A DNA stretch of 64,000 nt from a bacterium (GCA_030427365.1 JAUHWW010000002.1:48-64047); one strand, 5' to 3'; counted from the stretch's first letter, positions 1,564 through 58,811 are shown. The notes: generated by a model not told the origin, from the letters alone. Numbers and translations: made by a program.

Positions 1564-3327
1564 ATGCACATCGCTGAAGAAACACTGATCGATATTCTTA
1601 AAAACAGCAAATCTCTCGATGACGATAAAGTCAGTGAGCTCGTTGAGCAAGCAAAGAATGAAAAAATTGATCTTCAAGAATTGGTCGTTAAACAGAACGT
1701 TCTCAGTGACACTGAGTTAACAAAAGCTTACGCTGAAGAGATTGGCGTGCCTTTCGTCGAGCTTAATATAAAGGAGCTCAACAAAGAGGTTCTGCAGCAA
1801 CTTCCCGAACATATTGCCAAGCTATACAACATGGTTGTCTATGAAGGGTCAATCGATGACAAAGCGGCTGTCCGAAAAGTCGCAATGGAAGATCCTGATG
1901 ATTTGCAAGCCGTGGATGTGCTGCATAAATTATTCGGTCAAAGCCTTGAAATCTCTATCGCGCCACATTTCAATATTCTCGCTGCGCTCGACGCTTACCG
2001 CGGCAATATTGGCAGCGAGATTGATAAAATCGTCACAGACGATGATCCAGAGCCCGACGAAGAAGGTGAAGTTTCTGAGGAAGATATCGCTGAAGACTCC
2101 CCTATTGCCCAAACGGTAAATCTGCTTTTGGAATACGCGATTAAGTCCGGTGCAAGTGATATTCACATTGAACCTCGAAACAAACAAGTGCTTGTGCGCT
2201 ACCGTGTTGACGGTGTGCTTAAAGAAGCCAATCGACTGCCGAAGCGTACACTGGCTGCATTGGTCTCACGTATCAAAATCTTGAGTAATCTAAAAATTGA
2301 CGAACGGCGCGCGCCGCAAGATGGGCGTTTCAAAATCAACATGAATGGCCGCGTTTTCGCATTCCGCGTCTCTACCCTGCCAATTACCGAGGGTGAAAAA
2401 GTCGTTATGCGTGTATTGGATGAATCAAGCGAGCCGCTGTCGCTTGAAACGCTTGGCTTTTGGGGTAAAGCACTTGAAGATATCAAAGCCGCGAGCAGGC
2501 AGCCACATGGCATGATCCTGGTCACAGGGCCAACCGGATCAGGAAAATCAACCACGCTACACAGCGTCCTGCACATCCTCAACAAACCGGATGTGAACAT
2601 TTCTACGATTGAAGATCCAGTTGAATACAAGCTCGAAGGAGTCAATCAAACGCAGGTGAATCCAGTCGCCGGCATGACCTTTGTTGCCGGGCTCAGGGCG
2701 CTGCTCCGCCAAGACCCAAATATCATCATGGTTGGTGAGATTCGAGACGGCGAGACGGCTGGTCTTGCCGTGCAAGCTGCCCTCACAGGCCACCTCGTCT
2801 TCTCTACGCTCCACACGAACAATGCCGCGACCTGTTTACCGCGTTTGCTTGATATGAATATTGAACCGTTCCTTATCGCCAGCGTCGTGCGCGTCGTTAT
2901 CGGACAACGTCTCGTGCGGCGCTTGCAGGCTGAGGATTGTGAAGAATATGCGCCTGATGAGAAGGAAAAGAAAGAGATAGAGCGAGTGTTCGGTCTAAAG
3001 AGCAAGGCCGACTGGGATCAAGTATTCGAGCTTGCAAACGCGGCTCGTGAACATTTTGGCCAAGAAAAAAGTACCAAGCTAACCCTCTGGCGACCAAAAT
3101 CTGATCTCAGCGAAAACAAAACCGGCTATAAAGGCCGAATGGGTATTTATGAGGTGCTCGCGAACGAGGAAGAAATCCAAAAGCTTATCGTCGCCAATGG
3201 TACCGCCGATGAAATTCAGACTGAGGCCATCAATAAAGGTATGGTCACCATGCAGCTAGATGGACTCATTAAAGCTATGATCGGCATGACATCGATAGAA
3301 GAAATCCTAAGGGTGACCCGTGAGTAA
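1564..3327 (+). CDS. pilB: type IV pilus assembly ATPase PilB (GspE family)
   Basis: 587 aa. N-terminal T2SSE_N-like region, Walker A GPTGSGKST, IIMVGEIRD Walker B region. First gene of the pilus operon. Confidence 0.9.
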   Translation: MHIAEETLIDILKNSKSLDDDKVSELVEQAKNEKIDLQELVVKQNVLSDTELTKAYAEEIGVPFVELNIKELNKEVLQQLPEHIAKLYNMVVYEGSIDDKAAVRKVAMEDPDDLQAVDVLHKLFGQSLEISIAPHFNILAALDAYRGNIGSEIDKIVTDDDPEPDEEGEVSEEDIAEDSPIAQTVNLLLEYAIKSGASDIHIEPRNKQVLVRYRVDGVLKEANRLPKRTLAALVSRIKILSNLKIDERRAPQDGRFKINMNGRVFAFRVSTLPITEGEKVVMRVLDESSEPLSLETLGFWGKALEDIKAASRQPHGMILVTGPTGSGKSTTLHSVLHILNKPDVNISTIEDPVEYKLEGVNQTQVNPVAGMTFVAGLRALLRQDPNIIMVGEIRDGETAGLAVQAALTGHLVFSTLHTNNAATCLPRLLDMNIEPFLIASVVRVVIGQRLVRRLQAEDCEEYAPDEKEKKEIERVFGLKSKADWDQVFELANAAREHFGQEKSTKLTLWRPKSDLSENKTGYKGRMGIYEVLANEEEIQKLIVANGTADEIQTEAINKGMVTMQLDGLIKAMIGMTSIEEILRVTRE

Positions 3328-4537
3328 GTTCGAATACACCGCTACAGGTGAAGACAATAAACAGCACTCGGGAACGCTTGATGCAGCTGACGAAAATGCA
3401 GCCCGCACAGCATTGATACGTCTCAAACTTAAGCCAGTCGTCATCAAAGAGCTGAAGAAAAAAGGTGGCTTTAGCATGGAGATTAGCTTCTTAACCAGTA
3501 AAAAGGTAAAGAAGAAAGATCTCGTTGTATTTACGCGGCAATTAGCGACCATGATCAACGCAGGCGTGCCCCTAGTCAGATCACTCGCGACAATGCAGAA
3601 ACAGACTGACAGCGAGCAGCTACAGAAACGGCTAGCTTCGATCAGCAAAGATGTTGAGAGTGGTACTGCGTTTGCAGACGCACTGGAAAAACATGAAGAC
3701 GTATTCGGACCGATTTATGTCAACATGGTTCGCGCTGGTGAGGCTGGCGGCATCTTGGACGAAATCCTCAAAAAACTCGCTACGCAGCAGGAAAAAGACG
3801 CTGCTTTGAAAGCGAAATTTAAAAGCGCTATGACGTACCCAATGGTGCTTGTCAGCATCACGGTGCTAGTATTTATCGCGCTTATGACATTTGTCGTGCC
3901 CACGATCGGTTCGATTGTCGGCGATCTCTCAGGCGGCGAATTACCAACTATGACGAAAGTTCTACTAAAAGTCAGTGACATCATGGTGACCTATTGGTGG
4001 TTGGAGCTTCTTATCGTCTTTGGGGGCGGTTTTTATCTGTTTCGCTTTTTGCGCACTACCCGAGGGCGACAAGTAAAAGACCGCCTGCTACTACGCATTC
4101 CTGGCATCAAAATCATTGTCATTAAAATGGCCGTTGCTCGCTTTGCTCGAATCTTTGCAAGTCTGATGACCGCCGGTGTGACAGTACTTGACTCAATCGA
4201 AATTACGGCAAAAGCGATCGGCAATACCGTTATTGAAAAAGAGCTGATGCAGGCCGCCAAGCAAGTGGCAAACGGAGAACAGTTCTCTGAGCCACTTTCA
4301 AAAAGTTCTGTATTCCCTCCTATCGTGAGCCAGATGTTATCAATTGGAGAAGAAACCGGTCAGACCGATACAGTCCTCTTAAAAGTTGCTGATTTCTATG
4401 AAGAAGAGGTTGACGCAGCCGCTGATAGTTTAAGCTCCATCCTCGAGCCAATTATGATTGTCGTTATGGGCGCTATGGTGGGTGTTATCGCCGCTAGTGT
4501 GCTTGGCCCTATCAGCAGCTTGTCTCAGAATATCTAG
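3320..4537 (+). CDS. pilC: type IV pilus platform protein PilC (GspF family)
   Basis: 405 aa with two T2SSF-like repeats and hydrophobic segments. GTG start overlaps the pilB stop. Confidence 0.9.
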   Translation: MSKFEYTATGEDNKQHSGTLDAADENAARTALIRLKLKPVVIKELKKKGGFSMEISFLTSKKVKKKDLVVFTRQLATMINAGVPLVRSLATMQKQTDSEQLQKRLASISKDVESGTAFADALEKHEDVFGPIYVNMVRAGEAGGILDEILKKLATQQEKDAALKAKFKSAMTYPMVLVSITVLVFIALMTFVVPTIGSIVGDLSGGELPTMTKVLLKVSDIMVTYWWLELLIVFGGGFYLFRFLRTTRGRQVKDRLLLRIPGIKIIVIKMAVARFARIFASLMTAGVTVLDSIEITAKAIGNTVIEKELMQAAKQVANGEQFSEPLSKSSVFPPIVSQMLSIGEETGQTDTVLLKVADFYEEEVDAAADSLSSILEPIMIVVMGAMVGVIAASVLGPISSLSQNI

Positions 4538-5240: not shown

Positions 5241-6308
5241 GTGGGCATATTCTATAAAGACAAACCAGTGTTCGGCCTTGACATCGGTCGAAGCTCAATT
5301 AAGGTCATGCAGTTCAGCCGCACGAATAAGCAGACCCAGGTCACCGCTTACGGCTCTGCTACCTTTGACCCGGCCGCACTCAAAGACGGAGTAATTGTTG
5401 ATCACGAAGCCTTTGTAAAGGCTGCCCATAAGCTACTGCAAGAAGGCCTTATCGGCAATATCACCACTTCACATGTTGCGGTCAGTCTGCCAAACTCACA
5501 TAGCTTTAGCCGCGTTTTGACACTGCCGAAAATGGACGACGCTGATATCGCCAATTCGGTGAAGCTTGAGGTCGATCAGTCTATACCGATGCCGATCGAT
5601 GAGTTGTATTACGATTACAGTGTTGTCCAGGAATCATCTGAGGGAGATCGTGAAGTGCAAGTTGTTGCCTCTCCAAGAGCAATTGTTGACTCGTATTTTG
5701 AAGCGTTCCGTCTGCTTGGACTAGATGTGGCGCTCATTGAGCCAAATATCTCTGCGGTTACTCGCATCGTCATGCATGCGGAAGAACATGCTGTTGCAAC
5801 TCTGATTGTTGATATCGGTTCAACCGCGTGTGATCTAACGGTGTACGACGGACAAGCGGTGCGCGTCACGGGCACTGTTGATTGTTCAAGTGAAAAAATA
5901 ACTGACAACATCGCAAAAGCACTTAGTGTTGACCGAGCAAAAGCACAAAATATCAAAACTCGTTATGGATTAGAGGTAAGTAAAAAGCAGAAAGAAATCG
6001 TAGAAGCGGCTAAACCAGAACTCAATAAACTCGTAAACGAAATTCGGAAAGTGATGCGTTATTTTGCCGACAAAGGTCGCGAAGGCAGTGGCAAACCTAT
6101 CGGTCAGATTATCATCCTCGGTGGTGGTGCAAACTTGCCAGGGCTCAGTACGCATCTGACAGATCGCACGCGCGTGCCTACTCGACTTTGTGCACCCTGG
6201 AATAATGTCGACTTTGGTCGTCTGCAACCACCGCATGAACTTGAAAGCACCCTCTATACAACAGCGAGCGGACTTGGTCTCGTCAACATCAAGGAGCTTG
6301 GCTCATGA
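5241..6308 (+). CDS. pilM: type IV pilus assembly protein PilM (actin-like ATPase fold)
   Basis: 355 aa. FGLDIGRSSIKV N-terminus and IILGGGANLPGL motif, typical of PilM/FtsA-like proteins. GTG start. Confidence 0.85.
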   Translation: MGIFYKDKPVFGLDIGRSSIKVMQFSRTNKQTQVTAYGSATFDPAALKDGVIVDHEAFVKAAHKLLQEGLIGNITTSHVAVSLPNSHSFSRVLTLPKMDDADIANSVKLEVDQSIPMPIDELYYDYSVVQESSEGDREVQVVASPRAIVDSYFEAFRLLGLDVALIEPNISAVTRIVMHAEEHAVATLIVDIGSTACDLTVYDGQAVRVTGTVDCSSEKITDNIAKALSVDRAKAQNIKTRYGLEVSKKQKEIVEAAKPELNKLVNEIRKVMRYFADKGREGSGKPIGQIIILGGGANLPGLSTHLTDRTRVPTRLCAPWNNVDFGRLQPPHELESTLYTTASGLGLVNIKELGS

Positions 6309-6940
6309 TTAACCTCATTCCTACCAAGGTAAAACAGATGCGCCAGTACGGTCGTCTTAATCGGCTACTGCTGAAGGTGCTGACTGGTATCTCGGTGATT
6401 GGCGTGGCTGCGACACTGGTCATGCTCTCCGGGTTACAACTAACCAGAAACGACGAGAAATTACTTGATGAGATCATCGCTTCAAAAACAGCTCTTTATG
6501 AAAACAGCAAAATCTATGAGTCTCAGGCAAGCGAGCTCAAAGGTGACCTTGCAACAATACGAAAAGTATTTGATCGCGAAGTGCAGCTATCAAAACTACT
6601 TGTAGAAATTGCCAGTGCAATCCCCGTTAACGTCGAACTAACCAGTCTCTCCCTTACCGGAAATAACACCGCACCGCTGCAGATAACGGCACGTGCAAAT
6701 ACCCAAGAGCTGGCTGGTACGTTGCGCCGTAACTTAGTCGATTCAGGCGTATTTGAAGCTGCTGATATTCAATCTGTTACATTGCAGTCAAGCGAAAACG
6801 GACCAGACACATATAGCGTTTCCATCCTCGCCACTTTGACAGGCGCCGCAGAGCAGTTGCGTCAAGAAAAGGCAGCTGCACAGGCTGAAGCGGCAGCCCA
6901 AGCGGCCCAACAAGCAGAAAATGCACAAGGACAAGAATAA
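6305..6940 (+). CDS. pilN: PilN-like bitopic pilus alignment protein
   Basis: 211 aa. MINLIP N-terminus, one TM, coiled region. ATGA overlap with pilM. Ala/Gln-rich tail. Confidence 0.7.
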   Translation: MINLIPTKVKQMRQYGRLNRLLLKVLTGISVIGVAATLVMLSGLQLTRNDEKLLDEIIASKTALYENSKIYESQASELKGDLATIRKVFDREVQLSKLLVEIASAIPVNVELTSLSLTGNNTAPLQITARANTQELAGTLRRNLVDSGVFEAADIQSVTLQSSENGPDTYSVSILATLTGAAEQLRQEKAAAQAEAAAQAAQQAENAQGQE

Positions 6941-7518
6941 TGAAGCGTCTTTCCCTCACACCAAAAACCGCGTTCTATGGCCTACTCGGCGCACTCGGCA
7001 TCGTACTTCTTGGTGTCGGCTTCATGCTGAACTGGGCAAATGGTCAGCTGCAAGTGCAGGCAGAATCCATCGCTGAAAAGCGTATCGAATCTGAAACGCT
7101 CGAGCGACAAACAGCACAGGCACAACTTTACAAACAAGAGCTTGAAGAACTCGGCGAACTAACTGATGTTGTGGATGCAGTGTTGCCAAACAGTAAATCT
7201 CAAGAAAACATTGTCGGTGAGCTTATCGATATAGCTGCGAAACGTGGCTTGCAACTAGAGAATATTTCGTTCGGCGGGAGTGCTGACGCACAGAACCCAG
7301 AGACTTCTCAAACTGAAAGGGTCGATGGCCTCGCTGGCGTGTTCTCACTCGTCGTGCAAACCCAGATTGAGACAGACTACGAAAACGTTCTGCAGTTCCT
7401 AGAAGACCTCGAAAACAACCGCCGACAGTTTGAAGTGACCAGCCTGTCTATCGCACCGCGTGAGGACGGTGTTAATTTCACCGCAACATTAGCAATAACC
7501 ACCTACATCAAGCCATGA
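6940..7518 (+). CDS. pilO: PilO-like pilus alignment protein
   Basis: 192 aa. N-terminal TM, coiled coil, then an alpha/beta domain. Start overlaps the pilN stop (TAATG). Confidence 0.65.
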   Translation: MKRLSLTPKTAFYGLLGALGIVLLGVGFMLNWANGQLQVQAESIAEKRIESETLERQTAQAQLYKQELEELGELTDVVDAVLPNSKSQENIVGELIDIAAKRGLQLENISFGGSADAQNPETSQTERVDGLAGVFSLVVQTQIETDYENVLQFLEDLENNRRQFEVTSLSIAPREDGVNFTATLAITTYIKP

Positions 7519-8399
7519 AAAGTCTAAAAAACCCACTCGAATCGATCACTCCAAAAAAAATCGCTGATGGCTCATTGCGTATTCTCAGAGATCACACGCC
7601 AGTAGTTCTGACTGTTTTGGCGGCAGGATTGATCGGCTTTGCCCTTTACAGCGTTAGTACACTCACGAGCGATACTTCACAGCAAGTATCACAAGCAGAG
7701 AACGGCACGTTCGAACAGCCAATCACAGGTCTCAACATAGATGAGGATTTAAAGCGGTCCTTAGAATCGTTGAGTGAAGACAGCGACGTTGTTATCTCTA
7801 GTAACATTGCGAGCTACCGTCGAAGCGCGTTCAGTAACGTCACTGCAGAGAGTGACTGGGTACTTAGCGCCGCTCGAGCACTCGAAGATTATTTCGACCA
7901 AAACGAGGCCTACCCTAGAGAAGATCAAATCGTGAGTGTGCTGCGTGATGCCGTCGTGAATCCAGAAGATGCAGGAGGTCGGCTCGTGAACACTGAAGCC
8001 AGTGTATATAGATACCAGCCATCGATTTGCAACGAAACAGGCTGTCAATCATTTAGCCTGAGCGAGAATCTCGGATCGTCAACCTACCAACTTGGAGAAC
8101 GTGACATCGTGAGGCGAACCTGGGTTAACGACACAGCAGAAGCGCTTGCGGCCTATCAAGCTGCAAGTGGTAGCGGCGTGTACCCAACAGAGAAGGAATT
8201 TGTCAGTGACATGAAGGCTTTCTACGAAGCGACGTTTGATCAGCCATTCGAGCCGAATGATCCTCGCGGCAATGAAGTAAATAACGATAACAGCACTTAT
8301 AGTTACATCGGAGTGAACTGCACGTTGAGCGGGTGTCAGAACTTTGTATTGCGCACAACGTTCAATGATGGCGCCCTCTACTTCCAGCAAAGTAACTAG
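7515..8399 (+). CDS. membrane-anchored protein with two tandem pilin-like globular domains (last gene of the pilus operon)
   Basis: 294 aa with one TM (VVLTVLAAGLIGFALYSV). Two internal repeats each carry A.AL..Y......YP ... Y.Y ... C...GCQ.F.L, the same pattern as the pilin C-terminal domain. ATGA overlap with pilO. Confidence 0.5.
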   Translation: MKSLKNPLESITPKKIADGSLRILRDHTPVVLTVLAAGLIGFALYSVSTLTSDTSQQVSQAENGTFEQPITGLNIDEDLKRSLESLSEDSDVVISSNIASYRRSAFSNVTAESDWVLSAARALEDYFDQNEAYPREDQIVSVLRDAVVNPEDAGGRLVNTEASVYRYQPSICNETGCQSFSLSENLGSSTYQLGERDIVRRTWVNDTAEALAAYQAASGSGVYPTEKEFVSDMKAFYEATFDQPFEPNDPRGNEVNNDNSTYSYIGVNCTLSGCQNFVLRTTFNDGALYFQQSN

Positions 8400-10752: not shown

Positions 10753-11241
10753 TTAAATCCGCTTTAAATCCGCTTTCGGTGCGGCGAGGTGAGTCAATGC
10801 AACAGCAAGCGCGTCAGCGGCGTCATCGGGCGTGGGCTTTTTCTTTAGACCAAGCTGCACACGCACCATCTCCTGAATCTGCGCTTTCTTGGCATGGCCG
10901 TAGCCTGTCATCGCCATTTTTATTTCATTCGGCGCATACTCATAAATTGGAAGAGCGTGTTCTATCAGTGCGAGCAGGATGACACCACGTGCCTGACTGA
11001 CTTGCATGCCGGTCGTAATATTTTGCACGAAGAATAATTTTTCTACTGCTGCAACATCTGGATTTAGTTCTGCGATCAACTCCTTCAGGGATTCATATAG
11101 CTCGAGCAAGCGTACGGCGTCATCTGCCCCCTTTGTAGTCGTAATCACCCCGCCGTCAATCATTTTTGGCGTGCGGCCACTGCCGTCAACCAGCCCAAAG
11201 CCGATCGTCCCTGAACCTGGATCAATTCCTAGTATTTTCAT
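10753..11241 (-). CDS. ruvC: crossover junction endodeoxyribonuclease RuvC
   Basis: MKILGIDPGS... RuvC-type N-terminus. I chose the internal ATG at 11241; the track ORF extends to 11283. Confidence 0.9.
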   Translation of the reverse strand: MKILGIDPGSGTIGFGLVDGSGRTPKMIDGGVITTTKGADDAVRLLELYESLKELIAELNPDVAAVEKLFFVQNITTGMQVSQARGVILLALIEHALPIYEYAPNEIKMAMTGYGHAKKAQIQEMVRVQLGLKKKPTPDDAADALAVALTHLAAPKADLKRI

Positions 11242-11662
11242 TTTTTCCTGGTTTCCTTCTGTGTCTATACAACAGTAGCCCAACCACGGTAACGAGAAAC
11301 CAGATCATAAAATTTAGAACCCGTCCAAGAGGGTAAGATATTCGATCTAGTTGTGCTGTTTTTTCGACGCTTTCAAAGTCAATGCTATACCAAGGTACTA
11401 GATCTGCTGATATTACACTTCGATAGTCATCGGTCATATTTCGCACATCGTCAATATTAGCTGAGACTACAAAGGGTAAGCCAGACCTTCGCTCTACATG
11501 CATACCACTTCTTACACAAAGAACCCCAGTGCATTCTTTATTTTCACCTACATCAATAAAAACAGATTTTTTATATGACACTAACGTACTAAGGTAAGTT
11601 GTTACAAGAGCAAGCACAAACAGCTTTGCGATTATTTTTCTATTTAGGTCCCATTTTTTCAT
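11222..11662 (-). CDS. hypothetical bitopic membrane protein inserted between yebC and ruvC
   Basis: 146 aa with an N-terminal anchor and a C-terminal TM. Visibly AT-rich. Overlaps both the yebC stop and the ruvC start. Confidence 0.5.
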   Translation of the reverse strand: MKKWDLNRKIIAKLFVLALVTTYLSTLVSYKKSVFIDVGENKECTGVLCVRSGMHVERRSGLPFVVSANIDDVRNMTDDYRSVISADLVPWYSIDFESVEKTAQLDRISYPLGRVLNFMIWFLVTVVGLLLYRHRRKPGKNENTRN

Positions 11663-52267: not shown

Positions 52268-52702
52268 TTATTTTGTTTTCTTTTTCACAGCTATCTTTTT
52301 CGGCTTTGGAAGTTCTTTAAATGGAACCGTAACTTTCAGGACGCCGTCTTCCATATGAGCGGAGACTGCATCTTGGTCAGCGTGCTTCGGCAAACGAACG
52401 CTGCGATAAAAGCTGCTTGACGACTCCCGCACAACATACTTTTTCTTTTTATCCTCTTCCTTTTCGTGTTTCTCAGCACGAATGACCAAATTGCCATTGT
52501 CGACGTGAACATCTATATCCTTTTCTTCAAAATTAGGCATGTGCGCCTCTACGACGAGCTCTTTGTCCTCGTTCGTGTAAACGTCGGTTGTGGGCAAAGC
52601 AAGCGTACTCGCGCTACTAAGACCCCACTCATCACCAAAGAATTGCTTTTGCAATGCTCGCATCTCTGCAAAAGGATCCCATCTTTGCAAACCGTTACTC
52701 AT
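52268..52702 (-). CDS. small heat shock protein (Hsp20/alpha-crystallin)
   Basis: 144 aa. Alpha-crystallin domain (DVYTNEDKELVVEAHMPN...GVLKVTVP). Confidence 0.93.
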   Translation of the reverse strand: MSNGLQRWDPFAEMRALQKQFFGDEWGLSSASTLALPTTDVYTNEDKELVVEAHMPNFEEKDIDVHVDNGNLVIRAEKHEKEEDKKKKYVVRESSSSFYRSVRLPKHADQDAVSAHMEDGVLKVTVPFKELPKPKKIAVKKKTK

Positions 52703-52860: not shown

Positions 52861-52935
52861 CGCGGGGTGGAGCAGCGGCAGCTCGCGTGGCTCATAACCA
52901 CGAGGTCGCAGGTTCGAGTCCTGCCCCCGCTACCA
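52861..52935 (+). tRNA. tRNA-CAU, initiator-like (fMet), CCA encoded
   Basis: 75-nt cloverleaf. C1 is unpaired with position 72, and A11:U24 sits in the D stem (GAGC/GCTC); both are initiator hallmarks. CTCATAA loop, GCAGG-TTCGAGT-CCTGC T arm. Confidence 0.92.
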
Positions 52936-52948
52936 AGTGAAACTTTGG

Positions 52949-52971
52949 AACCATCCTCCGGGATGGTTTTT
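52949..52971 (+). terminator. intrinsic terminator after the tRNA-fMet
   Basis: AACCATCC-TCCG-GGATGGTT followed by TTTTTAAG. Confidence 0.7.
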
Positions 52972-52999
52972 AAGTTTCGCTTAGTTTCGGCGAGCAGTG

Positions 53000-53088
53000 C
53001 TCGAGCCAAAAAGGTTCGCACAACAGTCACAGCCCCCAGCGATAGCGGGCGGCTGGATTGGAGTGGTCACTCTTCCTGCCCCCGCTAC
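53000..53088 (+). repeat. repeat unit A: module Y plus an exact 15-nt copy of the tRNA-fMet 3' end
   Basis: 53000-53019 is identical to 54493-54512 (CTCGAGCCAAAAAGGTTCGC). 53074-53088 is identical to 52919-52933 (TCCTGCCCCCGCTAC). Followed by its own hairpin plus T6 at 53099-53122. Confidence 0.8.
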
Positions 53089-53255
53089 TACGACAAGAGT
53101 CCATCGCAAGATGGGCTTTTTTCGTGTTACTGAGACAGGCTCCAGCTAGCGACCTCGCGAGGTCGGAGGTGAGAAATGCCAGCGGCATTTCGGAAACGAA
53201 TCTTCTCTTGCAAACTTGTTTGCAAAGATGAAGTTCGGGGGTCGCCGAAGGTGAC

Positions 53256-53267
53256 CGAGTCCTGCCC
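53256..53267 (+). repeat. second partial copy of the tRNA-fMet T-arm
   Basis: CGAGTCCTGCCC is identical to 52915-52926. Preceded by a variable-loop-like GAAGGTGAC. Confidence 0.55.
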
Positions 53268-53333
53268 TTCTTCTTGAAGCTTATCTCGCTACTGCTTGTG
53301 AACTGATAAGGATAATGAGAACATACATCCATT

Positions 53334-54362
53334 ATGCAAATGATTGAGTTAAATCCCGAAGTTTCTATTTCACGATTGGGCTTGGGGACGTACCACTTAA
53401 CCGACCGATTGTCTGAGATTGATGCGATTGAAGCATTGCGTGCTGCAGAACACGCAGGAATTACATTAATCGATACTTCTAACAACTACCGTAGTGAAGC
53501 AGTTATTGGGCTCGCGCTGCGAGATGGCGTTTTACACGAAGCCGACACGTTTATCGCGACAAAAGCAGGATTGGCAATTACATGGCCGCAGCATCAAAAG
53601 CTGCGTACACAAGGCAGGACTGCTGACAGCACTCCTGAATACTTACGCTCTAGTGTCGATGGGAGCATTAGTGTACTTGGAGTGAAAGCGCTTGACCTGT
53701 TCCAACTACATGACATCGACGAAACGGTGACTCCTCTCTCGATAGCTTCGACAATGACTGAGCTGGTTGAAAGTGGCAAGGTGCGCCAGTGGGGTGTGAC
53801 GAACTATAGTAAAGAAGCAGTTGATGATCTGCTATCTGCTTGTGACAAGTACGATGCAGTTCGGCCTGCAACGGCGCAACTGCCCCTTGATTTGGTTACT
53901 GGTGTTACGGACGCTGTGCAGATAGCACGCGATGAGGGCATGATTGTACTCGGCAGATCACCGCTTGGGTATGGACTTTTTACGGATTCTGGTATCGATC
54001 AAGCCAGAGACATAATCGAGCAGGCTGATCCAGAAAAGAACATCAAAGACGCACTTTTGATCACATTAGATAAATTAGACGAAATAAGAGACCAAGCACA
54101 CAGCGTCGGAGTTGCTTTTGAAGAACTAGCTCTTGCGTGGGTAATGAGCCACGACCGTACAGCTGTGCTAAACAGCTGCTACTTGCCAGAGTATTTACAG
54201 CGTAGCGTCAGAGCAGAAAGATGGGATGCTCCCCAGGCATTATTTGATACTGCCAATGAACTCCATGAAAATCCATTGTATAGAGAAATGGGCAATCGTC
54301 TTATACGCGTGATGCACAGTACCAGACCGCAGCTGAATCGCTCAGCCCACCCACCGCAGTAA
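53334..54362 (+). CDS. aldo/keto reductase
   Basis: 342 aa. LGLGTY...GITLIDTSNNY...ATK... AKR pattern. Confidence 0.88.
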   Translation: MQMIELNPEVSISRLGLGTYHLTDRLSEIDAIEALRAAEHAGITLIDTSNNYRSEAVIGLALRDGVLHEADTFIATKAGLAITWPQHQKLRTQGRTADSTPEYLRSSVDGSISVLGVKALDLFQLHDIDETVTPLSIASTMTELVESGKVRQWGVTNYSKEAVDDLLSACDKYDAVRPATAQLPLDLVTGVTDAVQIARDEGMIVLGRSPLGYGLFTDSGIDQARDIIEQADPEKNIKDALLITLDKLDEIRDQAHSVGVAFEELALAWVMSHDRTAVLNSCYLPEYLQRSVRAERWDAPQALFDTANELHENPLYREMGNRLIRVMHSTRPQLNRSAHPPQ

Positions 54363-54387
54363 TAATTATTGCGTAGTCTTGCACAAA

Positions 54388-54476
54388 ATAGCACCTATAG
54401 AAGGCAGTCTTATGTATCCCCCAGGGCGAACCCGCTACCAAGAAAACAGACTCAGCAACCTGCTGGGTCTTTTTTC
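54388..54476 (+). pseudogene. degenerate tRNA-CAU-like pseudogene plus a copied terminator (paralog of the 39.3 kb tRNA locus)
   Basis: ATAGCACCTATAGAAGGCAGTCTTATGTA... aligns to the D and anticodon arms of the tRNA at 39363-39439. GCTACCAAGAAAACAGACTCAGCAACCTGCTGGGTCTTTTTT parallels that tRNA's 3' end and terminator (GCTACCAAGAAAAATGACTCACATCTGTGGGTCTTTTTT). Confidence 0.65.
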
Positions 54477-54492
54477 TTTGTCGGAGACTAGA

Positions 54493-54682
54493 CTCGAGCC
54501 AAAAAGGTTCGCTATTCCCCCCGCAAAGCGTTGCTTTACGGACGGGCGGATTACATTCATAGCTCCTGCCACGGTCTTACTTGAAACATGTTTCAAATCA
54601 GCCGTCGCCACATCTCAACTCGGCCAGGGCCGGGTTTCCGATCTTGCAGAATTTCACTGAACTTCCTCACCCCGCTACCAAG
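54493..54682 (+). repeat. repeat unit B: module Y, a perfect 16-bp palindrome, and a tRNA-fMet 3'-end copy
   Basis: 54493-54512 equals 53000-53019. TTGAAACATGTTTCAA lies at 54581-54596. 54663-54682 matches tRNA 52918-52937 at 17 of 20 positions, including CCAAG. Confidence 0.75.
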
Positions 54683-54718
54683 CATAAGCATTTTGAAATC
54701 CGTAAACTGGTGTCATTT

Positions 54719-55516
54719 TTATTGAAGAAATTGATTTGTTGCTTCGGCTACCCAAGCGTATTTATCGGCAACAAAATCAAGAGGCTGGCCGTCACGATAT
54801 AGCTGCTTGTCAACCATCTGATTTGAATCACCGCCTGGCCATATACGCCACGAATCATTATCGATTACATCCGCTACTACAAATCCATTGGGTGTTCTAC
54901 CGCATTCGATTTTCATATCGACCAAAGTTACGTCCTGCTCTGCCCAGGCGGCTTCAATAACTTCAAATGTGGCTACAGAAAGATCGCGTAATTGACTAAT
55001 TTCGTGGTCACGTAGGCCAAACGGAGACTGAACGATATTTTGTTGATCGATAAGTGATGGTTCGTCTATTGGCTGTTTTGGATGGTAACGAAAAACCATG
55101 TCGCAGGAGTAATCTAGATACGGGTCATGATTTTCGTCATCTTTAGCGAACATTTCGAATAAAGGTGGTTCAAATCTGGCTCCTTCTGCCACGCCAGGGT
55201 TTCGTTTTAGGTACGATCCGTATGCTAATCTTCTAGTCACTAATTCAATTGGCACCATGTCTACTCTCAGCGCACGAAACACAACATCGCTTCCAGCTAG
55301 TCGACCTTGATAGTGCGTAGGGATTCCATTTCTTTCCAGTAGTTCAAAGCAGTTAGATGTTGTTTGTGTTGCAAGAGCTGCCTTGCCCTCGATTTGATCA
55401 CGTCTAGCCCCATCACCTGCTGTTATATCATCCTTGCTCTCTATTAGTACCGTTGGTTCTTCTGCATATATTCTTTTTGTTTTGCCTTCAGCAATTACCT
55501 CGCCGGATACTATCAT
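54719..55516 (-). CDS. purC: SAICAR synthetase PurC
   Basis: 265 aa. GKTKRIY N-terminal motif and SAICAR_synt-like layout. Confidence 0.88.
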   Translation of the reverse strand: MIVSGEVIAEGKTKRIYAEEPTVLIESKDDITAGDGARRDQIEGKAALATQTTSNCFELLERNGIPTHYQGRLAGSDVVFRALRVDMVPIELVTRRLAYGSYLKRNPGVAEGARFEPPLFEMFAKDDENHDPYLDYSCDMVFRYHPKQPIDEPSLIDQQNIVQSPFGLRDHEISQLRDLSVATFEVIEAAWAEQDVTLVDMKIECGRTPNGFVVADVIDNDSWRIWPGGDSNQMVDKQLYRDGQPLDFVADKYAWVAEATNQFLQ

Positions 55517-55615
55517 ACTAACTTCCCCATTACATAAATCTAGGATATGCTAGTTATACAAAACAAACAAGTTAAGCAAACTAGTATCAAATGCCTAATC
55601 CTAATGGGAGACACA

Positions 55616-56155
55616 ATGACTAAACAAGCCGAACAAGAGCCAATTGTAGGAGTAATTATGGGTTCTGACTCAGACTTGAAAACCATGAAGCCAGCCTCAG
55701 ATATATTGCACCTGTTTGGTGTGCCGCACGAAGTAAGAGTGAAATCTGCGCATAGAACGCCCGAGATGATGGCAGAATATGGTAGAACTGCATTAGATAG
55801 AGGAATAAAAGTAATAATAGCAGGAGCAGGCGGATCTGCTCACCTGCCTGGCATGGTAGCTTCTGAGACTAGGCTTCCGGTGCTTGGTGTAGCTATCGAA
55901 AGTTCTGCGGATGTTACAAATGCCGCCCTAGGCTCAATGATAAGAATGCCAAAGGGCATTCCACTCGCTACAATGGGCAAAGGTGAAGCGGCTGCGGCAA
56001 ATGCAGGATTAGAGGCAGTTAGAATATTAGCCTTAAGTGACGATCAGTTAGGACAAGCATACGAGAATTACGTCGAGAGGATGGCCGCAGAAGTCATGGC
56101 GAAGGATCAAAGGCTAGTAGAGTTAGGCGTAGATACATACTTGCAGCAAATGTAG
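55616..56155 (+). CDS. purE: AIR carboxylase / N5-CAIR mutase PurE
   Basis: VGVIMGSDSDL, SAHRTP, AGGSAHLPGMVAS motifs. Start at MTKQAEQ behind GGAGA. Confidence 0.93.
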   Translation: MTKQAEQEPIVGVIMGSDSDLKTMKPASDILHLFGVPHEVRVKSAHRTPEMMAEYGRTALDRGIKVIIAGAGGSAHLPGMVASETRLPVLGVAIESSADVTNAALGSMIRMPKGIPLATMGKGEAAAANAGLEAVRILALSDDQLGQAYENYVERMAAEVMAKDQRLVELGVDTYLQQM

Positions 56156-56206
56156 TTCCACTCCCAGCTGCTAGTCCAAGTCATATCTTTTGCAATCCCT
56201 AGAATA

Positions 56207-56301
56207 GCTTTCCATCTGTTAAGCTATTTTGCAGATTAGGTTCCAATCCGATTTCAAACGCGCTACCAAGAATAAAAGCTCAGGATTTATCCTGGGCTTT
56301 T
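56207..56301 (+). repeat. tRNA-pseudogene-like direct repeat C1 with copied terminator
   Basis: 56207-56267 aligns with 58140-58198 at about 48 of 61 columns by hand. A D-arm-like GCTT...AAGC and a T-arm-like GGTTCCAATCC end in CGCTACCAAG. The terminator GCTCAGG-ATTTAT-CCTGGGC-TTTT is homologous to those at 39331-39354 and 54448-54476. Confidence 0.7.
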
Positions 56302-56343
56302 GTTCTTGATGACCGAAGGTCGTGACTCGTACCTTCGCGCAGT

Positions 56344-56429
56344 GTTCGCTAAATAGTCTGTTGCCCGATTCGGCGCACAGATTATTTAGGACACTCGTCC
56401 TCCCACACTTCCAAGCATAAGCTATTTGA
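56344..56429 (+). repeat. palindromic module Z followed by a tRNA 3'-end/trailer-like fragment C2
   Basis: 56344-56396 matches the reverse complement of 12893-12951. 56398-56429 (TCCTCCCACACTTCCAAGCATAAGCTATTTGA) is homologous to 54664-54697. Confidence 0.7.
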
Positions 56430-56493
56430 CCATATAAGCATCTTGATGATGTAGCATCTCATTCAAAAGGGTTGGTGCGGTATACTATTCTTG

Positions 56494-57945
56494 ATGAGCT
56501 ATGACCACAAAGAATTGACTGCCCTAGTCGATGAGCTTAGAAATCTAGGCTCAGAACAAGAGTGGATTGAGTTCAAGAAAGATAATTTCCAGCCAGATGT
56601 AATCGGGCAAGCCATTTCAGCCCTTTCGAACGCTGCAGCATTACACGGTAAGGACAAGGCTTACCTAGTTTATGGCATAAAAGATGACACTCACGAAGTG
56701 ATAGGCACTATATTTGACCTCGCGAAGGAACGCGTTGGAGCCGAGGAGCTTGAAAACTGGCTAAATAAGATGCTCGACCCCAAGATAAACTTTATTTGTC
56801 ATGAGTTTGAGTACGTACCGGGAACTAAAGTTGTAGTGATAGAGATAGATGCCGCCTCATCTTACCCAGTCAGCTTCAAGAAAGCATGTTACATTCGTGT
56901 TGGTAGCTACACGAAACCAATCTCAGCCCACCGTGGAAAAGAAAAAGCACTCTGGAGCAAGCTTGAAAAGAAAACTTTTGAGCTCGAGCTGGCAAAAACA
57001 AACCTCAGCAATGACGAGGTGCTTACACTACTAGATTACAATGAGGCCTTCAAAAAGCTCGGCATTCGCCTGCCAGATGACAAGTCTAGCATTATAGAAA
57101 AACTCATTGAAAATGAACTCGTAACTAAGTCCAAAGGTCGGCTAGCCATTACAAACCTGGGGGCGGTGCTGTTTGCAGTCGATCTGACAAAGTTTGATGG
57201 TTTAGCAAGACGTGCAGTACGTGTAGTCAAGTACGATGGTAAGGACAAGCTCGAGACCGAGCGAGAGTTTCGTGGCAAAAAAGGCTATGCGTTAGGTGTT
57301 GACAATATTGTCAGCCTTATAGCTACAATAACCCCGGCAGAGGAGGTTATGGAAGGTGCTTCACTAATAAAAAAGTTTGCATACCCTCAACGTGCAGTAC
57401 GTGAGCTAGTCGCCAACGCATTAATCCACCAAGACTTTAGCATTGGTGGTGCTGGCCCAATGATAGAAATCTTTGACAACCGAGTTGAAATATCAAACCC
57501 AGGTACGCCACTAGTTGATGTACAAAGAATCATTGACCATAGCCCGAGGAGTAGAAATGAAAAGCTTGCTGGCACAATGGCCAGAATGGGTATTTGTGAA
57601 GAACGTGGCAGTGGTGTAGATAAGGTTGTTATTGAGTGTGAGATGAGCCAGTTACCGGCTCCCGAATTCATCGTTGAAGATGATTTTACACGTACGAAAC
57701 TATTCGCTTATAGAACACTTAGAGACATGACGAGGGAAGATAAAATACGAGCTACCTACTATCATGCTGTAATTAAATACATTACTGATGGTTATATGGA
57801 AAACAATACACTCCGGGAACGTTTCGGTATTGCCAAGGAAAACTATCCCACTGCTTCCAACATTATCAGACTAGCTTTAGACGCAGGTGCCATTAAGACA
57901 CGTGACTCAGATACCGCGACAAAGTACGTGCCGTTTTGGGCGTAA
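56494..57945 (+). CDS. Schlafen/AlbA_2 domain plus HATPase_c_4 plus wHTH protein (COG2865-like)
   Basis: About 483 aa. N-terminal AlbA_2-like EWIEFKKD...YLVYGI. Central RELVANALIHQDF...IEIFDNRVEISNPG. C-terminal HTH-like region. The track ORF starts at TTG 56491. TATACT at 56481-56486 lies 7 nt before the ATG, so the mRNA may be leaderless. Confidence 0.85.
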   Translation: MSYDHKELTALVDELRNLGSEQEWIEFKKDNFQPDVIGQAISALSNAAALHGKDKAYLVYGIKDDTHEVIGTIFDLAKERVGAEELENWLNKMLDPKINFICHEFEYVPGTKVVVIEIDAASSYPVSFKKACYIRVGSYTKPISAHRGKEKALWSKLEKKTFELELAKTNLSNDEVLTLLDYNEAFKKLGIRLPDDKSSIIEKLIENELVTKSKGRLAITNLGAVLFAVDLTKFDGLARRAVRVVKYDGKDKLETEREFRGKKGYALGVDNIVSLIATITPAEEVMEGASLIKKFAYPQRAVRELVANALIHQDFSIGGAGPMIEIFDNRVEISNPGTPLVDVQRIIDHSPRSRNEKLAGTMARMGICEERGSGVDKVVIECEMSQLPAPEFIVEDDFTRTKLFAYRTLRDMTREDKIRATYYHAVIKYITDGYMENNTLRERFGIAKENYPTASNIIRLALDAGAIKTRDSDTATKYVPFWA

Positions 57946-57948
57946 TCC

Positions 57949-58034
57949 ACATGTAATCGAGCATCGGTATTTCGTACAACAACAATTTTTCACCCCTGTA
58001 AAAAATACTTATACACATGTAATCAACATGTAAT
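57949..58034 (+). repeat. three direct copies of ACATGTAAT
   Basis: Copies at 57949-57958, 58015-58024 and 58026-58034, just downstream of the AlbA_2 gene. Confidence 0.6.
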
Positions 58035-58056
58035 TGGAAGAGGATGGGGTTGCTGA

Positions 58057-58136
58057 GACTGGGAGCCTTTACTGAGAGAGCCGGCAGTTCTAGACCCAGC
58101 TGCCTGTCTCTGTTAACTGGGGTACTGCTCCCAGTC
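58057..58136. other. about 80-nt imperfect long hairpin
   Basis: Outer perfect 10-bp stem GACTGGGAGC/GCTCCCAGTC. Inner AGAGA/TCTCT and GGCAG/CTGCC stems. Confidence 0.55.
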
Positions 58137-58139
58137 ACT

Positions 58140-58198
58140 GCTTCCACCTGTTAAGCTCTTTTGCAGATGAGTTGTAGTTCGATTTTAGACGCGCTACC
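58140..58198 (+). repeat. tRNA-pseudogene-like direct repeat D1 (partner of C1)
   Basis: GCTTCCACCTGTTAAGCTCTTTTGCAGATGAGTTGTAGTTCGATTTTAGACGCGCTACC. Its last bases overlap the ftsB-like stop codon. Confidence 0.7.
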
Positions 58199-58637
58199 CG
58201 CCGAAAAAGAAGTTCATCCAAGCTTCAAAGTTGCGCTGGTAGGCTGGTTTCGTAGACTCAGGCTCAATGGTTTCGCTATCGAGCGGCGTTTTAAGCGCGG
58301 CAAGAGCTGTTTCTTCAGTAATGGTATAGACACGCTCACCTTCGGCAGCAACGCCGTTCACGCGGCGCGCCTTCAGCTCTGCAAATTCCGGCGTTTTATA
58401 GTACTCAATTTCCAGCTCTCGGTTGCGGTTCTGCAGCTCGAGAACGCGGTTTTCTTCTTCTAAAATTGCAATCTTCTCAGTCAGCTCGTAGTTCTGCTGC
58501 ACCACTTTCGCACCGTTGTAAACAACCGCTAATCCAATCAGCCCAAGTAGCAACACGCCAAGCAAGCGGGGGTCGTCTAAGCCCTTTTCGGCCAGCTTAT
58601 TGCGAATGATTTCTATTTTTGTGCGGATAAGATCCAT
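58194..58637 (-). CDS. septum formation initiator (FtsB/DivIC-like)
   Basis: 147 aa. One TM followed by a leucine-zipper-like coiled coil (LTEKIAILEEENRVLELQNRNRELE). Confidence 0.75.
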   Translation of the reverse strand: MDLIRTKIEIIRNKLAEKGLDDPRLLGVLLLGLIGLAVVYNGAKVVQQNYELTEKIAILEEENRVLELQNRNRELEIEYYKTPEFAELKARRVNGVAAEGERVYTITEETALAALKTPLDSETIEPESTKPAYQRNFEAWMNFFFGG

Positions 58638-58662
58638 ACCTGTATTCTAGCAAAAGTGCTTT

Positions 58663-58738
58663 TGGTGGGGGTACCTGGATTTGAACCAGGGACCAATCGG
58701 TTATGAGCCGACTGCTCTAACCCCTGAGCTATACCCCC
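58663..58738 (-). tRNA. tRNA-CAU, elongator type (Ile2-lysidine or Met), CCA encoded
   Basis: 76-nt cloverleaf: GGGGGTA/TACCCCC acceptor, CTCATAA loop, CCTGG-TTCAAAT-CCAGG T arm. The variable and T region resembles E. coli ileX as I recall it. Confidence 0.92.
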
Positions 58739-58811
58739 ATCAAAAATACTTTTAATCCGCCCAATTATACCTTGGGAAGGTCATTTTCGCTAGGAGTAGC
58801 GATAAGATGAA

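Follow-up and report, generated by a model that had tools for sequence, protein, structure and literature searches.

A prokaryotic Schlafen gene with a helically phased repeat module in an exchangeable cassette slot of a Saccharimonadales chromosome

Prokaryotic Schlafens have only recently been shown to be antiviral tRNA nucleases. Their commonest architectures are Slfn-HisKinase (34%) and Slfn-HisKinase-HTH (19.2%), their catalytic motif is Ex4(E/D)xK, and the two HisKinase-fused members assayed in E. coli gave no phage defence (PMC13056530). Here we describe a gene of the HisKinase-HTH (helix-turn-helix) type in a stretch of 64,000 nucleotides (GCA_030427365.1, JAUHWW010000002.1:48-64047; hereafter the window, with positions counted from its first letter), which, as judged from its sequence, is a core chromosomal stretch of a Saccharimonadales bacterium (Saccharibacteria, candidate phyla radiation). 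The gene shares with the published class the domain order Slfn - GHKL/HATPase_c_4 - HTH, the invariant Ex4ExK motif, the single-gene organisation and the occurrence in defence or mobile contexts, and its product belongs to an already known class that was named recently and is uncharacterised in function. What sets the locus apart is a module of phased short repeats that begins at the stop codon of the gene and a pair of ~113-nt repeat units that bracket it. A term search of PMC13056530 turned up no passage on autoregulation, direct repeats or intergenic elements, and no description of phased repeats downstream of these genes was found in the literature searched; the repeat module would appear to be a new trait of a large family of defence proteins.

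Two kinds of described mobile system resemble the surroundings of the gene. As in tRNA-targeted integrative islands, the array in which it lies starts at a tRNA gene, the repeats resemble the 3' end of that tRNA, all relics of this end lie on the tRNA strand, and the content varies in relatives. In contrast to such islands, there is no integrase in the window, the cassettes measure 0.15-1.9 kb and often hold a single open reading frame (ORF) or no ORF at all, use is made of secondary junctions within the array, most of the ~113-nt unit bears no likeness to a tRNA, and purC and purE are among the cargo. As with integron attC cassettes and the pdif modules of Acinetobacter, the cassettes are small, mostly single-gene, exchangeable and without a recombinase of their own, and the 60-140-nt site that terminates each is conserved chiefly at the edge. 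Unlike integrons, the locus has no IntI and no attI/Pc arrangement, its unit has no conserved hairpin, and the Schlafen cassette appears to have its own promoter; the junction is neither GTTRRRY nor a dif-like XerC/D site. GTTAAGC does occur inside the unit, but the edges lie at CGCTACCA followed by AG.

The short repeats themselves recall operators. Winged helices of the PhoB/OmpR type bind direct repeats of 11-bp period head to tail. Their sites and those of the R1 ParR-parC system, in which two blocks of 11-bp repeats surround a promoter core, are the closest comparison for the module described here, which has direct repeats of 7-9 conserved bases at an 11-bp period, two in-register blocks with an A+T-rich core, and a winged-helix protein encoded next to the repeats. 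Here, in contrast, the array lies downstream of, and overlaps, the stop codon of its own gene rather than standing at a known regulated promoter, and the protein carries a nuclease and an ATPase domain and has no response-regulator or partition partner.

The Schlafen protein and the phased repeat module

The gene starts at the ATG at 56494, and its exact 483-residue product is already on record. An earlier note on this DNA, made from the sequence alone, had read it as a single gene of AlbA_2, HATPase_c_4 and winged helix-turn-helix (wHTH) domains. Searches with profile hidden Markov models from Pfam bore out the first two, namely SLFN_AlbA_2 (PF04326; E 4.3e-18, 66.4 bits, cut-off 25.3) and HATPase_c_4 (E 3.7e-23, 81.8 bits, cut-off 26), while the C-terminal HTH gave no Pfam match and is visible only in the AlphaFold model. 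This model, with 64 homologues as input, has a predicted local distance difference test score (pLDDT) of 90.3 and comprises, from N to C terminus, a Schlafen-like domain, a middle winged helix, a GHKL-type ATPase and a C-terminal three-helix wHTH (residues 414-480; helices 414-430, 437-444 and 448-464 plus a beta wing; pLDDT of the block 84-94). The Ex4ExK motif is intact (E21-QEWI-E26-F-K28), with E21, E26 and K28 invariant across the 64 homologues, and the protein is predicted to be a Schlafen-type tRNA nuclease. The elements of the gene and of the module that follows it are:

56481-56486, plus strand: TATACT, a -10-like hexamer 7 nt before the ATG at 56494, with no Shine-Dalgarno sequence; putative leaderless start
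56494..57945, plus strand: prokaryotic Schlafen gene, 483 aa (Pfam, AlphaFold, Foldseek, comparison with PMC13056530)
57938..57959, plus strand: proximal pair of short repeats (iterons) at an 11-nt period, GGGCGTAATCC (57938-57948, degenerate, overlapping the stop codon) and ACATGTAATCG
57960..58014, plus strand: A+T-rich spacer, with CCCCTGTAAAAAAT at 57993-58006, kept as CCTGTnAAA in the closest orthologues
58015..58036, plus strand: distal iteron pair, ACATGTAATCA and ACATGTAATTG, 66 nt (6 x 11) from the proximal copy

The earlier note had pointed out three direct copies of ACATGTAAT behind the gene, and these are indeed the only ones in the window (57949, 58015 and 58026; 0.36 expected). 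With the degenerate fourth copy at the stop codon, the array therefore consists of two pairs at an 11-nt period, 66 nt apart. Between them, CCCCTGTAAAAAAT is a possible extended -10 element.

The same arrangement accompanies the gene family far beyond Saccharibacteria. With the module defined by two tandem copies spaced 10-11 nt and one more copy 40 nt or more away, 24 of 34 family loci have it, as against 12 of 191 control regions downstream of other ORFs at the same loci and 14 of 340 shuffled family regions. The positive loci come from many phyla, and in each of them tandem copies of a lineage-specific motif run from the stop codon with an 11-nt period. The same layout is seen in orthologues from unrelated contexts, with ATGTAATCG or ATGTAATTG in the loci L090, L092, L093 and L116, ATGTAAC in a Bacteroidales locus (L106), and TAACTTGC, TAAGTTGC, TTGCTTGAT, TATTTGACTG, ATTTGAT, TTTTGATC or TCATGTCA in other lineages. 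Among these loci are proteobacterial plasmid copies, with a Providencia NDM plasmid and a Cereibacter plasmid, and a type I restriction-modification (R-M) operon of Aliarcobacter, where the distal pair ends 12 nt before the start of hsdS. In the Bacteroidales locus it stands on both sides of the gene (2910-3000 and 4441-4535). Between L092 and L093, whose neighbourhoods are unrelated, DNA identity of 80% is confined to -46 to +103 around the gene, and promoter, gene and module therefore form a conserved portable unit.

The distance between the proximal and distal groups ranges from 55 to 131 nt at 19 loci and is clustered at multiples of 10.9 nt (resultant length 0.85 at this period, phase near 0; none of 20,000 random sets was as coherent). 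Further loci outside this test have distances of 67, 67, 67, 67, 78, 98 and 87 nt, none of which deviates from a multiple of 10.9 by more than about 2 nt; the four values of 67 come from one closely related subfamily. Besides the architecture, its conservation and its helical phasing, the comparison shows a co-variation between the motif and the start of the modelled recognition helix in the C-terminal wHTH: NYPxxS occurs with ATGTAA(T/C), S(S/A)xxxS with TAACTTGC, and N(S/A)xxxS with TTTGA(T/C). At one locus (L130) the protein has the YP residues and the DNA the ATGTAAT motif, though the rest of the protein is equally distant from all classes.

Two side observations concern the module. Four loci of a more distant subfamily from G+C-rich hosts (L133, L135, L138 and L140; 33-36% identity) have single copies without tandem pairs in the first 100 nt after the stop codon; the first, GTTCATTT, is at the stop codon and the second, GTTTATTTAAGGCTTTCCCCG, follows at exactly 67 nt, in the same two-site, six-turn layout. 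The two modules of the Bacteroidales locus resemble each other over 89 nt (E 3e-5). The upstream one stops 3 nt short of the ATG, and the reading frame that directly precedes it resembles, by eye, the C terminus of a type I HsdS subunit.

A -10-like hexamer 6-7 nt before the ATG, without a Shine-Dalgarno sequence, is found in four of the five close orthologues, namely the window, L116 (TATAAT plus 7 nt), L092 and L093 (both TAAGAT plus 6 nt), and the DNA homology of the last two begins just 46 nt before the ATG. This comparison is consistent with the leaderless mRNA suggested in the earlier note, to which a sigma-70 scan of 56100-58300 lends no support, having returned no full promoter; the gene is probably translated from a leaderless start.

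Structure comparison places the protein among the Schlafens. The best full-length Foldseek match in the PDB is 3LMM (E 1.9e-19, identity 14-16%), a structural-genomics entry for DIP2311 from Corynebacterium diphtheriae that shares the full-length fold and is itself uncharacterised; the N-domains of the mammalian SLFN11/13/5/14 match the Schlafen domain at E about 1e-4, and HK853 and PDK match the ATPase domain. A sequence search of the PDB with the single protein gave no match, and the matches of a profile search were limited to 3LMM (residues 271-377, the ATPase region) and, weakly, SLFN14. PADLOC returned low-scoring matches to models of prokaryotic Argonaute (pAgo) and pAgo-associated proteins (best E 1.6e-08, 31.2 bits), which we read as reflecting shared domains.

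The family is large (at least 7,999 matches at E <= 1e-10) and unusually well conserved, with about 50% identity between phyla and a mean column identity of 63%. Its members are mostly chromosomal, but some lie on conjugative plasmids, on prophage-like contigs, or, as on pAFAEC of Aliarcobacter (L149), in a type I R-M operon, where hsdM and hsdS flank the gene; the large plasmids that carry them have rep and par genes of their own. Along with the published survey (PMC13056530), these settings agree with the remark in the earlier note that the family often sits in defence or mobile contexts. In the window, part of a tiny Saccharibacteria chromosome, the Schlafen cassette has no neighbouring defence genes. 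One family member bears the name MloB, which we take to derive from the M-linked ORFs of Campylobacter type I R-M loci. This annotation is in GenBank plasmid record CP031753.1. On a sewage contig (L098), a second, shorter AlbA_2 + HATPase_c_4 paralogue of 433 aa (5594-6895) lies 1.1 kb downstream of the first copy, after a nucleotidyltransferase gene.

A cassette slot whose content differs between close relatives

The gene order around the module is purC, purE, left repeat, hairpin, Schlafen gene, four short repeats, 80-nt hairpin, right repeat, divIC and tRNA-Met (minus strand). All the elements listed in the earlier note lie where it placed them and exceed chance. The features of this stretch and of the array to its left are:

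52861..52935, plus strand: initiator tRNA-fMet (ARAGORN; Rfam 60.6 bits; C1-U72 mismatch), ending ...GGTTCGAGTCCTGCCCCCGCTACCA; proposed anchor of the cassette array
53074..53090, plus strand: relic of the tRNA-fMet 3' end, TCCTGCCCCCGCTACTA, with 1 mismatch, then a hairpin and a T-run
54425..54442, plus strand: junction ...CCCGCTACCA followed by AG, then a terminator-like hairpin
54664..54720, plus strand: junction TCCTCACCCCGCTACCA followed by AGCATAAGCATTTTG..., an empty site at which the relative L146 has an extra 425-nt cassette
54719-55516, minus strand: purC (Pfam), in the slot directly left of the Schlafen slot
55616-56155, plus strand: purE (Pfam), in the same slot
56154..56268, plus strand: left ~113-nt unit, ending ...AGGTTCCAATCCGATTTCAAACGCGCTACCA; conserved 3' half at 56207-56267
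56268-56306: strong 19-bp hairpin between A-rich and T-rich tracts (from folding), with 50 nt more to 56358; probably a bidirectional terminator
56386..56440, plus strand: degenerate relic of the tRNA-fMet end, GTCCTCCCACACTTCCA followed by AGCATAAGC, with junction AAGCATAAGCTATTTGACC (matched by eye)
58057..58136, plus strand: 80-nt imperfect hairpin, genome-specific, with a terminator-like inner stem at 58083-58104
58086..58198, plus strand: right ~113-nt unit; conserved 3' half at 58140-58198, the last bases overlapping the DivIC stop codon
58194..58637, minus strand: DivIC/FtsB-like gene, right flank of the array; protein 97% identical in L146

The informative relative, L146, is a 138-kb metagenomic scaffold that was found by protein search through its DivIC and of which 16 kb were read. 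In blastn comparison, window positions 54673-56275 (purC, purE and the left unit) are 97% identical to it and positions 58137-58774 (right unit, divIC and tRNA-Met) 91% identical, while the intervening 1861 nt (56276-58136) are replaced by 895 unrelated nucleotides with a terminator-like hairpin and an ORF of 237 aa. The earlier note had taken the locus for a single-gene cassette bounded by direct repeats and had named presence or absence precisely between them at strain level as a way to check this; L146 has both repeats and both flanks with a different gene between them, which is the positive outcome of that check. We thus observe a real exchangeable cassette slot, whose content differs between close relatives and whose edges lie at tRNA-end-like junctions.

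Two further differences have edges of the same kind. In L146 a third unit, to the left of purC, is part of an extra cassette of 425 nt (84-aa ORF plus unit; 10993-11417, minus strand), which is bracketed by direct repeats of ~45 nt (CGCTACCAAGCATAAGCATTnTG...), while the window site at 54664-54720 is uninterrupted; the left half of the duplication matches one side of the empty site and the right half the other. Moreover, window positions 56261-56358 (unit end, hairpin and 50 nt) share 87% identity with the stretch immediately behind the genuine tRNA-fMet of L146. The left unit differs from its L146 copy by one mismatch in the 63-nt stretch compared, and the right-hand units diverge between the two genomes far more than the adjacent divIC does.

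The flanking repeats were described in the earlier note as direct repeats of about 60 nt and some four fifths identity, and alignment of 56210-56267 with 58142-58198 indeed gives 83% identity over 58 nt (E 2e-11); two sub-patterns of the repeat occur exactly twice each in the 64 kb (0.00 and 0.07 expected). The similarity reaches further left, as 56154-56176 matches 58086-58108 at the same offset of 1932 nt. The unit is therefore ~113 nt long, the 58-nt repeats being its conserved 3' half, and it is present in two copies in the window and three in L146. Its 3' ends (...AGGTTCnAnTCC...CGCTACCA) are like the 3' end of tRNA-fMet. The RNAalifold consensus of the five copies (-3.8 kcal/mol, almost no covariation) shows no conserved structure and rules the units out as attC-like or RNA structured sites. 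By way of observation, a Saccharibacteria orthologue (L116/L118; 60% identity) is likewise bracketed by a direct repeat, of 22 nt (CTTAACAAGTCArGTATTmCCT; 91% identity, E about 1e-4), whose copies lie 107-86 nt upstream of the ATG and 181-202 nt downstream of the stop codon; one base further left, the upstream copy holds GCTTAACA, the reverse complement of TGTTAAGC in the window unit.

The tRNA-fMet gene lies 3.3 kb upstream of the units and ends in ...AGGTTCGAGTCCTGCCCCCGCTACCA. Within the 1.8 kb that follow, the same strand has two further copies of its last 17 nt, one at 53074 (1 mismatch) and one at 54664 (2 mismatches), so that with the tRNA itself the 64 kb hold three matches, all on the plus strand (0.05 expected); CSCGCTACCAAG has four exact matches, all on the plus strand, from 52926 to 56270 (0.33 expected). 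The unit ends (AGGTTCCAATCC...CGCGCTACCA) align co-linearly with the T-arm and acceptor end of tRNA-fMet over ~31 nt (shuffle p about 0.05). ARAGORN finds four true tRNAs in the window and none at the repeats, and Rfam, at the gathering threshold and at E <= 10, has no match between 55900 and 58800, whether to the repeats, to the iteron module or to the hairpin. Of the degenerate tRNA pseudogene seen in the earlier note, what stands is a borderline T-arm and acceptor likeness of the last ~31 nt, which gains support from its context (the shared strand, the junctions of CCA and AG, and the homology to post-tRNA DNA of L146); the D-arm is unsupported, and the silence of both programs and the lack of conserved structure rule the units out as tRNA genes or recognisable pseudogenes.

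Each junction reads ...CCA followed by AG, then a hairpin with a T-run. On account of these shared junctions and of the tRNA-end relics, we read 52936-58198 as a series of segments that would be delimited by ends like the 3' end of tRNA-fMet. The proposed segments are two short ORF-less relics, an aldo-keto reductase gene, an 82-aa ORF, then purC-purE, an ORF-less relic (56269-56410) and the Schlafen cassette (about 56411-58198). We propose that the last of these is bounded on its left by the junction at 56386..56440, where the degenerate relic (56386-56420) lies 75-110 nt before the ATG; a 69%-identical orthologue (L090) has AAGCATAAGC at a similar distance. The G+C content of the island (0.42-0.45) is slightly lower than that of the flanks (0.45-0.50), which is not diagnostic.

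Several observations were made along the array. The genes purC and purE fill a slot of the same array, between the junction CCCCGCTACCA followed by AG and the left unit (54681-56268). De novo purine genes are unusual in Saccharibacteria, and for this reason the two may have come in via the hotspot. One match a single mismatch away from the junction motif, CGCGCTACTAAG (52610-52621, plus strand), lies 250 nt upstream of tRNA-fMet, in or next to an HSP20 gene. Between an FMN reductase gene and the elongator tRNA-Met next to divIC, L146 also has an insertion of 958 nt, carrying an ORF of 265 aa (6971-7768), which is absent at window positions 58775-58810. Two independent Logan assemblies of the same strain (ERR3420974 and ERR3428543) contain contigs identical to the window that begin inside tRNA-fMet (52908), and one of them stops inside the tRNA-Met adjoining divIC (58718); the assemblies therefore break at the array borders.

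Searches for further instances were negative. The closest purE in a species-level genome collection (77% identical, in a metagenome-assembled genome of Candidatus Saccharimonadales) stands in a different gene order, DivIC relatives in metagenome contigs reach at most 63% identity and have other neighbours, and at the loci of two DivIC homologues of 76% identity (L151 and L152) the array is absent. DivIC homologues bear Saccharibacteria annotations. The 237-aa, 84-aa and 265-aa ORFs of L146 and the 82-aa ORF of the window have no Pfam or PADLOC match. Two pattern scans of viral contigs for the unit or junction in a phage or plasmid returned chance-level matches and an unrelated conserved coding motif.

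The 80-nt hairpin at the right end of the slot has, as the earlier note had it, a perfect outer stem of 10 bp, and the first half of the right unit, which is poorly conserved, forms its 3' arm. Folded as RNA it reaches -38.9 kcal/mol (z = -3.3; none of 200 shuffles was as stable), while as DNA in a 161-nt context it is not exceptional (z = -0.86). The suggestion in the same note that it might be a folded recombination substrate is not supported: neither L146 nor the orthologue loci have the hairpin, and the copies of the repeat unit share no conserved structure. It may separate the convergent Schlafen and divIC transcripts, though we attach little weight to this. A 36-codon ORF (MGLLRLGAFTERAGSSRPSCLSLLTGVLLPVTASTC; 58044-58154) runs through the hairpin and stops at a TAA inside the CTGTTAAGCT core of the unit; its start is badly spaced from GGAAGAGG, and it is not conserved in the orthologue loci.

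Alternative explanations

The reading that we consider probable, though well short of secure, combines a slot in a cassette array running from the tRNA to divIC with a portable Schlafen module whose operator array is bound by the wHTH. The stretch 56154-58198 would be one slot in an array of small gene cassettes that extends from tRNA-fMet to the 3' end of divIC, the slots being separated by tRNA-3'-like ends (...CGCTACCA, always then AG), and two of the slots here using copies of the ~113-nt unit. Cassettes would be gained, lost and replaced at the junctions, most likely through a site-specific recombinase encoded elsewhere. The cargo would be a self-contained module circulating among distant phyla and made up of a compact putative leaderless promoter, a nuclease-ATPase-wHTH gene and two repeat pairs. 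The C-terminal winged helix of the protein may bind the repeats of its own gene head to tail on one face of the DNA, and an oligomer may then link the two pairs, with the A+T-rich spacer looped out between them. The likely outcome would be self-control of a potentially toxic nuclease, by autoregulation, by insulation from neighbours or by holding the protein on its own locus; control of a promoter in the spacer is a further option. A more specific version, which we put forward tentatively and regard as rather unlikely in its full form, is that the phased operator array captures the newly made HisKinase-HTH Schlafen in cis as a looped oligomer, whose release or ATP-driven remodelling would license the tRNA nuclease.

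Several points weigh against this combined reading. No recombinase or integrase was found in the 20 further window ORFs compared with Pfam, in the genes of the locus or in the Pfam-annotated L146 genes of the 16 kb, and the similarity of the units to the tRNA, just ~31 nt, is borderline on its own. Ten of the 34 homologue loci fail the strict module test, among them the four with single copies instead of pairs. For a possible promoter in the spacer, the enrichment of -10-like hexamers just upstream of the distal iterons is weak (15 of 26 loci, where about 11, or about 41%, are expected). The quantised spacing could in part reflect descent from a longer 11-nt tandem array and not selection for helical phase. 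Binding to the putative operator is suggested indirectly by the co-variation, a role of the 3' untranslated region (UTR) at the RNA level is an alternative, and a defence role is unproven even for the HisKinase Schlafen class, because the two fusions tested gave no defence. Finally, homologous recombination in the conserved flanks could explain the replacement of cargo with no site-specific step.

The last point can be made into an explanation of the whole slot, which is unlikely on balance yet has to be taken seriously: the units and the junctions of CGCTACCA and AG would be a local intergenic repeat with a terminator, and cargo would be swapped by homologous recombination, either through the conserved genes on the flanks or through the repeats, following the uptake of DNA, of which Saccharibacteria are believed to be capable. 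The 20 further window ORFs are of housekeeping type (recA, ruvB, dnaJ, hrcA and pilus genes) and include, along with recA and ruvB, the type IV pilus parts PilM and T2SSF; the flanks, at 91-97% identity, offer ample room for exchange, the absence of an integrase is what this explanation expects, and the units lack the conserved fold of attC-type structured sites. It has to contend with three independent differences (the replaced cargo, the 425-nt cassette and the relocated post-tRNA segment) that share junction-type edges, with the halves of the ~45-nt duplication, which match the two sides of the empty site in the way that insertion at a defined site would leave them, and with the right units, which differ more than divIC, as expected if each cargo brought its own copy.

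Turning from the slot to the module, the iterons might instead act as RNA in the 3' UTR and be bound there by the Schlafen or winged-helix domain of the protein, as an antitoxin-like inhibitor or in the control of translation or stability, loosely like a type III toxin-antitoxin system; this we hold to be improbable. In ToxIN a tandem-repeat RNA inhibits an RNase. All copies lie on the coding strand and start at the stop codon or at most 25 nt from it, with no terminator before them, and Schlafen domains bind RNA (PMC13056530). What an RNA role leaves unexplained is that the spacers hold to multiples of ~10.9 nt, although their sequences cannot be aligned between lineages, which fits the geometry of B-form DNA; the co-varying residues, moreover, stand at the start of a classical recognition helix, the second module of the Bacteroidales locus lies immediately upstream of the ATG, in operator position, and Rfam gives no match.

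The remaining two explanations are both very improbable. In the one proposed in the earlier note, ACATGTAAT would mark recombinase arm sites, the hairpin a folded substrate and the repeats a tRNA-pseudogene att core, which would suit the position of the ACATGTAAT copies between the gene and the right repeat and the tRNA-like ends of the repeats; however, the module follows homologues into contexts without these repeats, its motif tracks the protein lineage, L146 uses the slot with no ACATGTAAT and no hairpin, and no recombinase was found among the 20 window ORFs compared. In the other, gene and module would be a minimal replicon or partition unit, active on an excised circle, with the protein as initiator or centromere-binding protein and the phased repeats on either side of the A+T-rich spacer as its origin or centromere, for which one could cite the ATPase plus winged helix, iteron origins, R1 parC with its two 11-bp repeat blocks flanking a core, and cis-acting RepA systems with sites right after the gene; yet the N-terminal domain retains the invariant Schlafen nuclease motif, members occur in type I R-M operons and on plasmids with rep/par genes of their own, no DnaA boxes or helicase partner were seen, and the family is mostly chromosomal.

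Implications for Saccharibacteria and for the Schlafen family

For the organism, the locus indicates that, behind its initiator tRNA, a reduced Saccharibacteria genome maintains a small array of cassettes with rapid turnover. Defence-type and purine-synthesis genes are among them, and no recombinase is in sight in the window or in the 16 kb of L146. The array bears on how episymbionts acquire genes. For the family, the HisKinase and HisKinase-HTH architectures make up about half of prokaryotic Schlafens, and neither has a known trigger, regulation or phenotype; the HisKinase-HTH class gains a conserved cis-element with a simple code that relates recognition-helix residues to an 8-9-bp motif. 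If the capture of the protein on its own gene is real, cis-tethering would be a way to keep a toxic immune effector silent, and it could explain why members cloned without regard to the element have given no phenotype.

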